This document shows positions 38,702-40,004 of a stretch of DNA of 64,000 bases, in pieces. The translations under genes were made by a program, and so were the position numbers. The DNA lies in the NCBI GenBank assembly GCA_964503265.1, contig CAZCYO010000001.1, positions 290,064-354,063 of the forward strand, written 5' to 3'. The notes under the pieces are model-generated. The model saw only the letters and a list, made by a program, of their open reading frames with translations, had not been told where the DNA came from and did no database searches. The first letter of the stretch is position 1, and every line of letters begins with the position of its first letter. The stretch is from an uncultured Gammaproteobacteria bacterium. Lineage in GTDB: Bacteria > Patescibacteriota > Microgenomatia > Levybacterales > UBA12049.

Positions 38702-40004
38702 GTCTCGCGTTTCGTCGTATTTTACCAGTCCTCACGAATTCGAACCGAAAACACAGCAACTTGTCACCCACATTCAGAAAATTAAAATAACGATCGTCGA
38801 ATCTGAACTTGAATCATTACTACTTGAAGCGTTTTATATTAAAAAATTTACTCCTAAATATAATATTCGTCTGGTAGATAACAAAACATATCCGATGATT
38901 AAAATTACTGCAAAAGATACATATCCTGCTGTTTTTATGACTCGAAAAATAACTGATAGTAAATCAATATACTTTGGGCCATATCCTAGCTCTAGTAGTG
39001 TAAAACTCGTTCTAAAAACGATTCGTCGAGCGTTTCCCTATATGTCGACGACCAATCATCCAAAGAGAACGTGTTTATATAACCATATCGGGCTTTGTCC
39101 ATGCCTTCCAGTCAATAATTCACCAGAGGTAAAACGTGAATATAAAAAAAATATTAAACAAATTATTCGAATATTGGAAGGCGAATCGCCTAAAATTATA
39201 AAAGAATTAGAACGAGAACGAGATAAGATGAGTAAAGAAGAGAAATATGAAGAAGCAGCACTTCTCCAAAAACGGATTGCAGCTATGAATTTTATCACCA
39301 GTCCATTCCATCGACCAGGTGAATATGACATCAATCCAAACCTACGTGAAGATATTAGAGTAAACGAACTGAATGATTTAAAGAATGTATTAAATAGCGC
39401 CGGTTACCGAATTGAAAAATTAGACAAAATAGAGTGTTATGACATCTCACATATCCAAGGTACTAACACGACGGCTTCTCTCGTGGTATTTGTTAAAGGA
39501 GAGAAAGAATCTTCACTCTATCGAAAATTTAAAATACAATTAGAAAAAACTCCTGATGATTTCGCTTCAATGCAAGAAGTGCTCAGGCGTCGTCTAAAAC
39601 ACACAGAATGGGAATATCCTGACTTAGTGATAGTCGATGGAGGAAAAGGTCAGGTATCATCAGCACTGGAACTGTTTAATGAACTAAATATCACAATTCC
39701 ACTAATCGGACTCGCTAAACGTGAAGAAACCATCGTAGTGCCACTTACACATCCACAAATATCTAACAATCTGTCATTCCCGCGAAGACGGGAATCCAGT
39801 CATATAAATGAAGATCCAATAAATTCCCGTCTCCTTTCGCAGGTTCGTGACCTTCGCGGAAATGATAAAGAAAACTTCCAAGAAATTGTTATCCCTCATT
39901 CATCGAAGGCGCTTCACCTTATGATGAGAATTCGGGATGAAGCGCATCGGTTTGCGGTAACGTATCACCGCAAGCTTCGCTCAAAAGCTTTTATCGAGAA
40001 ATAG
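38577..40004 (+). CDS. uvrC: Excinuclease ABC subunit C
   Basis: N-terminal [36 protein letters not shown], a central UvrC/RNaseH-like region, and the C-terminal [17 protein letters not shown]. Carries a 32-codon repeat insertion at 39772-39867. Confidence 0.9.
   Translation: [475 protein letters not shown]
39772..39867 (+). repeat. 96-nt nested-palindrome repeat inserted in-frame in uvrC
   Basis: Terminal inverted repeats TGTCATTCCCGCGAAG and CTTCGCGGAAATGATA (14 of 16 positions complementary). Internal hairpins ATTCCCG/CGGGAAT. The length is a multiple of 3 and it adds about 32 aa relative to the E. coli UvrC C-terminal region. Confidence 0.6.

Follow-up and report, generated by a model that had tools for sequence, protein, structure and literature searches.

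So far, Rickettsia and a small number of Proteobacteria are the best-known hosts of palindromic elements that form part of protein-coding sequences. Here, we describe a 96-nt palindromic element that lies in frame within uvrC, a nucleotide excision repair (NER) gene, of an uncultured Microgenomates bacterium of the candidate phyla radiation (CPR). The analysis covers a stretch of 64,000 nt (contig CAZCYO010000001.1 of assembly GCA_964503265.1), referred to below as the window. The closest described class of repeats is that of the CGTC-tagged repetitive extragenic palindromic sequences (REPs), stem-loops with an unpaired CGTC or TGTC tag, an 8- to 9-bp stem starting A-T, T-A, a 4- to 5-nt loop, and a CCA-like tail, which occur mostly as head-to-head dimers with 20- to 100-bp spacers (Di Nocera 2013, PMC3733652). 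Neisseria dRS3 and the Rickettsia conorii elements RPE-4 and RPE-6 are placed among them, and intragenic copies encode 20 to 30 amino acids, especially in replication and NER genes (PMC3733652). Di Nocera et al. argued that chance is an unlikely explanation for the REP insertions in the genes of UvrABCD, RecBCD, and polymerases and stated that CGTC REPs have no dedicated transposase (PMC3733652).

In Neisseria, the repeat NTS (CGTCATTCCCGCGMAVGCGGGAATCYRG) is bound as single-stranded DNA (ssDNA) by SsnA and cut a few nucleotides upstream, and NTS and SsnA modulate transformation (Chenal et al. 2025, PMC11893778). SsnA is a 94-amino-acid single-domain GIY-YIG nuclease whose family is defined by CDD cd10448. 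Across phyla, ssnA genes are typically flanked by Ssn-related motifs (SRMs), for which the published pattern is HGTCWYN(0-2)YYVSBRHN(0-5)WNVSBRGN(0-2)RNCYNB (PMC11893778). Rickettsia palindromic elements (RPEs), as the work of Ogata (2000, 2002) is summarized in PMC10969869 and PMC3733652, lie in frame in unrelated housekeeping genes and are translated in a fold-compatible manner, and the same two sources name R. conorii uvrB among the repair genes hit. Against this background, we consider it highly probable that the uvrC element is a head-to-head dimer of the CGTC-REP/SRM class that the ancestor of a small clade acquired in a permissive β-turn of UvrC, that it was retained because it keeps the frame, contains no stop, and does no harm to the structure, and that it is now diverging and eroding.

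Anatomy of the uvrC element

A first-pass annotation of this DNA, made from the sequence alone, had described an intact uvrC interrupted in frame by a nested palindrome of 96 nt, a multiple of three, with 16-bp imperfect terminal inverted repeats, internal ATTCCCG/CGGGAAT hairpins, and membership in a wider repeat family. The sequence, its folding, and the open reading frame (ORF) bear this out (Table 1). The element runs from TGTCATTCCCGCGAAGACGGGAATCCAG at one outer end to CTTCGCGGAAATGATA at the other and reads, in full order, TGTCATTCCCGCGAAGACGGGAATCCAG TCATATAAATGAAGATCCAATAA ATTCCCGTCTCCTTTCGCAGGTTCGTGACCTTCGCGGAAATGATA. Its 16-nt termini form an inverted repeat with 2 mismatches, and an inverted-repeat search returned terminal arms of 14 nt with 93% complementarity. 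Nested inside are an inner inverted repeat, AGACGGGAAT/ATTCCCGTCT (10/10 paired), and the left-end ATTCCCG/CGGGAAT hairpin (7/7 paired). RNA folding of the element region gave -33.4 kcal/mol (z = -4.3), a value that was not reached in 200 dinucleotide shuffles. With a length of 32 x 3 nt and no in-frame stop, the element starts at the second position of codon 399 and ends at the first position of codon 431, and 33 residues (399 to 431) draw on its sequence. No Rfam family matched the element at E <= 1; the scanned stretch held one weak match, to mir-205 (E = 0.37), downstream of the element at 39884-39953, and a scan of the whole window returned four tRNAs only.

The defining features of CGTC-tagged REPs can be read off the element directly: the tag (TGTC at 39772-39775), the 8-bp stem of the left unit, the tail (CCA at 39796-39798, after GGGAAT), and the dimer arrangement, with tags at both outer ends of a 23-nt spacer; the window holds five further dimers. 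The left unit, with 7 of 8 stem pairs formed around a 4-nt loop, is NTS/SRM-like and CGTC-1-like. It matches the NTS consensus at 26 of 28 positions (0 matches in 100 shuffles), and it is one of two window matches to the SRM pattern, compared with 0.06 expected from 50 dinucleotide shuffles. The right unit pairs less perfectly, with 1 mismatch and 1 G-T wobble in the stem and a loop of 25 nt. Among the orthologs (loci carry L numbers and their UvrC proteins P numbers; L004 = P0003, L002 = P0004, L003 = P0002, and L001 = P0001), L002 has a perfect 8-bp stem, ATTCCCGT/GAAA/ACGGGAAT, and the right unit takes a compact form in L002 and L003 (GATTCCCGTTTTCACGGGAATGACA / GATTCCCACTTTCGTGGGAATGACA). 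The 21-nt loop expansion accounts for the length of 96 nt in the window versus 75 nt in L002. The spacer is partly kept in L002 and deleted in L001.

TABLE 1 Coordinates of uvrC, the element and its parts, and related elements in the window
Feature	Position	Strand	Description
uvrC ORF	38577..40004	+	475 amino acids, TTG start, stop-free
96-nt element in uvrC	39772..39867	+	Head-to-head dimer of TGTC-tagged hairpin repeats, residues 399-431
Left repeat unit	39772..39799	+	Tag TGTC, stem ATTCCCGC, loop GAAG, stem ACGGGAAT, tail CCAG
Spacer between units	39800..39822	+	23 nt, TCATATAAATGAAGATCCAATAA
Right repeat unit	39823..39867	-	Inverted, degenerate; stem ATTCCCGT/GCGGAAAT; minus-strand tag TATC
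Right-unit loop expansion	39831..39851	+	21 nt, CTCCTTTCGCAGGTTCGTGAC; specific to the window lineage (alignment A3)
ssnA-like cassette	29233..29580	+	Unit 29233-29263, GIY-YIG gene 29266-29502 (78 amino acids), inverted unit 29543-29580
Second intragenic element	31258..31336	+	79 nt, TGTCATTCTGG...GGGAGATGACA; in frame in SerA / HAD-phosphatase fusion gene 29839..31656
Intergenic dimer	31660..31739	+	80 nt, AGTCATCCTGGAG...GATAGGATCTCA / GATTCTATC...CCAGAATGACA; looks like a gene-less cassette
Intergenic dimer	54668..54729	+	62 nt; left unit 54668-54696 fits the published SRM pattern
Intergenic AT-rich dimer	58364..58455	+	92 nt, TGTCATTCTCAG...AAGAATGACA
Head-to-tail pair of units	60964..61043	+	TGTCATTCTCATGAAAATGAGAATC then AGTCATCCTGGAG...GATAGGATCTCA
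Intergenic dimer	63028..63122	+	95 nt, TGTCATTCCCTTGAAAAAGGGAATC...GATTCTCAGTCAAGCTGAGAATGACA; left unit recurs at L004:3013-3041

Conservation of the hairpins

Across four orthologous copies, we assessed pairing in both terminal hairpins, with 15 stem pairs in all. Standard pairing was found in 90.6% of cells, compared with 30 to 49% in controls whose partners were slid by 1 to 3 columns. Both-sided (compensatory) changes had occurred at 4 of the 15 pairs, such as CGT/ACG in L002 versus CAC/GTG in L003, and at no more than one in the slid controls. Compensatory substitutions in the stems imply that a constraint continues to act at the nucleic acid level, which may be either binding by Ssn or conversion by other gene copies; the stem pattern in this small, related sample is as would be expected under such constraint or under repeated correction from other copies.

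Presence and absence among relatives

The loop that extends from the end of a 12-residue stretch to FQEI is 46 amino acids long in the UvrC protein of the window, compared with 2 to 3 residues in Thermotoga maritima UvrC (2NRR/2NRT) and 2 to 5 in the shortest Microgenomates orthologs, in line with the ~32 extra codons first proposed. In an alignment of the window protein with its close Microgenomates homologs (alignment A1, 29 sequences), the segment between the same 12-residue stretch and NF.EI.LP ranges from almost nothing to ~70 residues, and its flanks are nearly invariant.

Presence of the element is specific to a lineage. L004 (86% amino acid identity in A1) is syntenic with the window over ~20 kb and lacks the element, as does P0005, and the blastn alignment of L004 to the window is interrupted exactly at 39754/39867. 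L002 carries a 75-nt version (TGTCATCTCTGCGAAGACAGGGATCC...GATTCCCGTTTTCACGGGAATGACA), L003 a 105-nt version, and L001, whose UvrC is 94% identical at the amino acid level, a 33-nt remnant. These three copies share the junctions of the window element, and their lengths are all multiples of 3 and free of stops; the peptides that the orthologous copies encode are poorly conserved (A1). Orthologs do not share a nonpalindromic segment of equivalent length, the finding that would have contradicted the first-pass reading. A neighbor-joining tree of UvrC minus the loop had the topology (P0004,(P0002,(P0003,P0005,(window,P0001)))), with 88 to 100% bootstrap values; given this topology, a single ancestral gain, loss in P0003/P0005, and erosion in P0001 form the most parsimonious history.

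Protein-level searches with the insert peptide found nothing. An exhaustive HMMER comparison of the 33-residue peptide with 1.84 billion representatives gave nothing at E <= 0.001, and a word-indexed protein search produced no candidate for other decorated proteins; the approach is unsuited to these inserts because the peptides are too short and too variable.

The host protein and the position of the insert

UvrC of the window has a GIY-YIG domain at its N terminus, UvrC_M, and an RNase-H-like endonuclease domain at its C terminus but no HhH tail, and the conserved motifs DGGKGQ and RDEAHRF are intact in the 29-sequence alignment. Homologs are annotated as excinuclease ABC subunit C and carry PF01541, PF27096, and PF08459. 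All of the close homologs come from CPR Microgenomates metagenomes (Levy-/Roizmanbacteria-like), and the best identity among GTDB species representatives was 62%. The Logan gene call places the start at ATG 38646 (452 amino acids), with loss of GVY of the GIY motif; because of that loss, TTG 38577 is the likelier start, which restores GVY and overlaps the upstream transglutaminase-like gene by 125 nt. The first-pass annotation had called uvrC an essential repair gene; it is indeed a repair gene, though in general not an essential one.

The insert does not stem from a single assembly, since a separately assembled Logan contig, SRR12487046_655 (L059), is 100% identical to window positions 31675-46735; orthologous copies of the insert occur in three other samples.

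An AlphaFold2 model of the window protein, built from the 29-sequence alignment, had a mean pLDDT of 78 and matched the solved UvrC domains 2NRR (TMt 0.88) and 1YD6 (TMt 0.86). The pLDDT fell below 50 for residues 399-431, exactly those encoded by the element, which lie between strands 385-389 (TIVVP) and 434-438 (FQEIV). Low confidence between two strands predicts the insert as a disordered excursion from a β-hairpin turn of the RNase-H-like domain; the equivalent loop in Thermotoga is a β-turn of 2 to 3 residues.

Several other features of this gene were noted. The (HhH)2 C-terminal domain of canonical UvrC is missing from the window protein and from all listed Microgenomates homologs (408 to 496 amino acids), which stop directly after the RNase-H-like domain. 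A second length-variable site lies between KFKI[RK] and PNDFA (A1 columns 327-353; window residues ~322-327), where some Levybacteria-like orthologs have 20 to 35 extra residues (REWDK...RPKKDLPNDF; RDWEKPMSKAEKASLEAQTKVPKHL) and the window has none. The uvrC stop region (39991-40004) shares 14 nt with the end of a convergent SBP_bac_5 gene (39991..41346, - strand), and the same tight overlap is found in L004 and L060.

A dispersed family in the window

Besides the uvrC copy, the window contains at least 7 further elements of the family (Table 1). The pattern GTCATTCNNN{4,14}GAATS matched 7 times versus 0.24 expected, and a stricter scan for tagged hairpins (GTCAT + stem + loop + stem + ATC) found 8 units in 64 kb versus 0 in a reversed-sequence control; a looser scan for GTCA followed by any hairpin gave no gain over shuffles or control tetranucleotides in these AT-rich genomes. 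Tags in the other window copies and in the orthologs are TGTC, CGTC, or AGTC, and tails in other copies are CT or CC. Intragenic copies have 46 to 51% GC and are open in the frame used, and three AT-rich intergenic dimers have 27 to 40% GC and are full of stops. No flanking direct repeats (target-site duplications) were found at any of seven window copies.

The second intragenic copy interrupts a SerA (2-hydroxyacid dehydrogenase)-HAD fusion protein, which has 27 extra amino acids directly before GDGVTDA in comparison with the syntenic L004 ortholog (L004:1210-3006); blastn alignment with L004 is interrupted there, at 31247/31366. One palindromic family thus lies in frame in two unrelated genes, as in RPEs, and the uvrC site is fold-compatible. 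The first-pass annotation had drawn the Rickettsia parallel as tolerated in-frame colonization, and the SerA-HAD copy, absent from the L004 ortholog, supports it. The parallel is closer than analogy, given that RPE-4 and RPE-6 belong to the CGTC REP superfamily (PMC3733652), whose features the uvrC element has. There are differences as well: as far as RPE-1-type elements are described in these sources, they are ~100 to 150 bp long with conserved peptides, whereas the elements here are 60 to 105 nt long, encode poorly conserved peptides, and, unlike RPEs as described there, occur in each of the three reading phases. In addition, the host is not Rickettsia but a free-living or episymbiotic CPR bacterium.

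Three observations on individual copies may be added. The pair at 60964-61043 is a heterodimer of units from different subfamilies on the same strand, a head-to-tail arrangement that is rare according to Di Nocera et al. (PMC3733652). The gap between the SerA-HAD gene and an aminotransferase gene holds dimers of different subfamilies in two syntenic genomes (31660-31739 in the window versus L004:3013-3073), which suggests that elements at a fixed site are turned over or replaced. The L059 contig that carries uvrC ends at window position 31675, within the intergenic element 31660-31739, which suggests that these repeats break short-read assemblies.

Inserts in the same UvrC loop of other lineages

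Other subfamilies occupy the same UvrC loop elsewhere. In L037 and L061 the loop holds an insert of the "TTCTGG...CCAGAATCA..CTGGACAAG" type, the subfamily of the SerA-HAD copy of the window; in L060 it holds the "GTCATCCTGGAG...TAGGATCTCA...GATTCTATC...CCAGAATGACA" type, the subfamily found in the window as intergenic copy 31660-31739; and in L036, L039, and P0109 it holds the "GTCATTGCGA...GCAATC" type. The insertion points inside the loop differ between lineages, and together with the clade of the window, this implies at least 4 independent events. Over 27 distinct loci, tagged units numbered 5 in the 5.2-kb uvrC segment versus 19 in 377 kb elsewhere (~19 times denser), with reversed controls of 0 and 13, respectively; because the events are not all independent, this density is an indication and not a test.

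As a separate observation, L011 (L011:1124-1396), P0024, and P0085 have a different repeat-derived insert in this loop, with peptides like NSNLENSKIVSDSCLPAGKVGFRASNL. The L011 insert folds strongly (-40.8 kcal/mol) without a TGTC tag, and these inserts probably represent another palindromic repeat family.

An ssnA-like cassette

A blastn search with one element led to a cassette ~10 kb upstream of the uvrC element, in the order TGTCATCCTGGAGCGAAGCGATAGGATCTCA - TA - [ORF 29266-29502] - ... GAGATTCTATCAGCCACTACGAGGCTTCCAGAATGACA. The ORF has GIY-YIG as its only Pfam domain (E = 3e-14), and residues Y7, Y18, and E65 of its product are spaced like the catalytic residues (Y6, Y17, and E64) of SsnA from Neisseria meningitidis (Nm). 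The 80-nt intergenic element 31660-31739 consists of two halves that equal the two cassette ends. The same architecture is found at L060:15937-16300, a second L060 paralog lies between outward-facing units, and genes of this GIY-YIG subfamily were repeat-flanked in 3 of the 3 cases in the loci examined. The cassette is consistent with the NTS-ssnA-NTS arrangement (PMC11893778) in having a small single-domain GIY-YIG gene, putatively ssnA-like, with tagged hairpins on both sides. In Chenal et al., the focus is on Neisseria, its transformation, and its intergenic clusters of NTS; that paper takes up neither CPR hosts (the name Patescibacteria does not occur in it) nor dimers lying in frame within genes. 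The relation between the cassette and gene-less dimers is consistent with mobilization by an Ssn nuclease, but it is no proof of it.

Compared with the CGTC REPs of Di Nocera et al., which come from five phyla and mostly from Alphaproteobacteria, the repeats here have a CPR Microgenomates host and far more variable stems, including AT-rich variants, and a GIY-YIG gene bears their termini, whereas that survey found no associated enzyme. UvrABCD is mentioned there collectively, and uvrC is not named individually among the examples in PMC3733652.

A likeness to REPINs was also considered. Both involve an inverted doublet of REP hairpins with a variable spacer that can form one long hairpin (Bertels & Rainey 2011; PMC3116915, PMC3337134), and, as with the REP-associated tyrosine transposase (RAYT) of REPINs, the enzyme gene is itself repeat-flanked and vertical persistence is long. 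However, REPINs have a GTAG tag, and RAYT is an IS200-like tyrosine transposase, whereas the tag here is TGTC/CGTC and the associated gene encodes a GIY-YIG nuclease; on these two features, membership in the REPIN/RAYT system was rejected. REPINs are also overwhelmingly extragenic and 94 to 98% conserved within a genome, and the copies here are divergent. A Pfam scan of 30 ORFs from the 64 kb of the window and the annotation of the genes flanking uvrC in L059 revealed neither a Y1 (RAYT) nor a DDE transposase.

Further GIY-YIG observations concern the surroundings of the cassette and a second gene. In L062 (a 1,695-nt contig of ENA ERZ4216102), from a related strain that is 97.6% identical upstream, 77 nt are missing relative to window 29174-29250. 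The missing stretch takes in the end of an FtsJ-like gene and, of the hairpin unit that lies upstream of the GIY-YIG gene, the left half; with a coverage of only 1.7x, this could reflect either a real deletion beside the repeat or the assembly. In the region 51846-52170 (- strand), a small GIY-YIG gene that is a second and distant paralog (ORF 51910-52170) lies directly upstream of tRNA-Lys(CTT). Between the two, abutting the 5' end of the tRNA, is a ~45-nt GGCCCGCCTGTCAGCGCCTGAAGTCGCAGACAATGGCGGACAGG that is almost identical in L010 (L010:3-330), a different lineage, and that region matched no Rfam family at gathering score. GIY-YIG paralogs likewise adjoin tRNA genes in L013 and L015.

Proposed history and points against it

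According to the reading we favor, such units would be recognition sites of small single-domain GIY-YIG ssDNA nucleases of the SsnA family, whose genes are typically flanked by units. A dimer would have landed in the tight β-turn between the last two strands of the UvrC RNase-H-like domain, in the common ancestor of the small clade, and the insert would be translated as a disordered 32-residue loop that leaves the fold undisturbed and is presumably neutral for UvrC. It may have persisted because its length is a multiple of three, it has no in-frame stop, and it occupies a surface-loop position. Later changes would comprise the 21-nt loop expansion in the window, the deletion of 63 internal nt in L001, and loss in the lineage of L004 and P0005. 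An Ssn nuclease might be involved in spreading the repeats.

Several points weigh against this reading. The compensatory-change statistics are based on just four mutually related sequences. The right unit is degenerate, with tag TATC and a 25-nt loop, and it does not match the published SRM pattern. Most of the AT-rich window copies also fail this GC-biased pattern, so membership in the SRM class depends on the left unit and the shared architecture. No target-site duplication or exact empty site could be defined at uvrC, as the L004 flanks are too diverged. The units flanking the cassette belong to a subfamily other than that of the uvrC element, so no cognate nuclease for the uvrC copy was seen, and they do not fit the strict SRM pattern. 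Moreover, the GIY-YIG protein of the window has 78 amino acids versus ~95 in typical homologs (~17 fewer at the C terminus) and may thus be decaying. Finally, translation of the insert is presumed from conservation of frame and stop-free sequence only.

Alternative explanations

The short dimers may be nonautonomous, gene-less derivatives of a tiny mobile hairpin-ssnA-hairpin cassette that are moved by its GIY-YIG ssDNA nuclease, with the UvrC loop, or NER genes in general, as preferred or selected and not just permissive landing sites; we consider this extension rather unlikely. Bearing on it are the identity of 31660-31739 with the cassette ends, the same architecture in L060, the at least 4 subfamilies in the UvrC loop, and the compensatory changes in hairpins within coding sequence. 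If it were true, CGTC REPs would gain a dedicated enzyme that Di Nocera et al. did not find and a GIY-YIG-based, transposition-like mechanism, and Ssn activity on ssDNA would be coupled to NER.

Co-option of the insert for a function appears quite unlikely. Under this view, it could serve as an Ssn cleavage or binding site that limits recombination or transformation across the NER locus, adjust uvrC expression through mRNA structure, or change UvrC activity through the loop. Hairpins kept by compensatory changes across ~15 to 20% divergence of the UvrC protein would suit such a role, but gene conversion from other copies could keep palindromes without any function. The arrival of at least 4 subfamilies in the same loop of different lineages and the ~19-fold density of tagged units among the 27 loci would suit it too, but enrichment of the loop is equally predicted by a purely permissive site that filters random insertions, and the counts are not phylogenetically independent. 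The view of Di Nocera et al. that insertions in such genes are unlikely to be fortuitous (PMC3733652) and the modulation of Neisseria transformation by NTS and SsnA (Chenal et al., PMC11893778) speak for a function. On the other side, near relatives with an intact uvrC have lost the insert or let it erode (none in L004 and P0005; 33 nt in L001), and the encoded peptides are not conserved.

We regard it as very unlikely that the element is an ordinary MITE (a miniature transposable element with inverted repeats) derived from an insertion sequence with a DDE transposase and TGTCA...TGACA terminal inverted repeats, unrelated to Ssn nucleases. Bacterial MITEs are likewise short and noncoding with terminal inverted repeats, and copies within genes can make in-frame fusions (PMC10969869); the 5'-TG...CA-3' termini, the 60- to 100-nt lengths, and the presence/absence polymorphism between relatives would also fit. 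However, none of the seven copies has a target-site duplication, and no transposase was found among the 30 Pfam-scanned window ORFs or the uvrC-flanking genes of L059, nor was a parent DDE insertion sequence found in the window. In addition, each end is not a simple terminal inverted repeat but a tagged hairpin that fits the CGTC-REP/SRM definition, and the sole gene found bounded by these termini is that of a GIY-YIG nuclease.

Removal of the segment ahead of the formation of mature protein, in the manner of an intron or intein, so that UvrC remains undecorated, is extremely unlikely: the RNA is strongly structured, but it matches no Rfam family at E <= 1, its length falls far below that of an intein or group I/II intron, and four orthologous versions (96, 75, 105, and 33 nt) keep the frame and lack stops, as expected only if they are translated. 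An ordinary lineage-specific loop expansion with coincidental palindromy, which the highly variable loop length across the phylum (0 to ~70 extra residues) might suggest, or an assembly chimera is refuted by an NTS consensus match and a fold z-score of -4.3 that are not at chance level, by termini common to intergenic copies, and by the identical sequence in an independent assembly with homologous copies in three other samples.

Relation to previous work and implications

The class of repeats, their intragenic habit, their bias toward repair genes, and the associated nuclease have already been published (Di Nocera 2013; Chenal 2025). As far as the literature consulted shows, there is no description of CGTC REPs in CPR Microgenomates or of a CPR unit near-identical to Neisseria NTS, of one UvrC loop colonized repeatedly by several subfamilies, or of short elements equal to the ends of an ssnA cassette. 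These observations extend protein-coding palindromes to the CPR, whose small genomes are usually thought to be poor in mobile elements. The 26/28 match to NTS implies that the Ssn/SRM pair is conserved or has been exchanged across very distant phyla. Repeated colonization of the UvrC loop, compensatory stems in coding sequence, and gene-less look-alikes of the ssnA cassette may make it possible to test what spreads CGTC-type REPs and why they occur in excision-repair genes. In practical terms, such inserts inflate and fragment assemblies, as at the L059 contig end, and create spurious "lineage-specific loops" in alignments of CPR proteins.

Other features of the window

Apart from the repeats, the window encodes a 1,558-amino-acid multidomain glycosyltransferase (16009-20685, - strand) with two GT2 regions and a GT4/GT1 module. 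Its neighbors in the glycosyltransferase cluster are GT2, DegT aminotransferase, GT1, and polysaccharide deacetylase genes.

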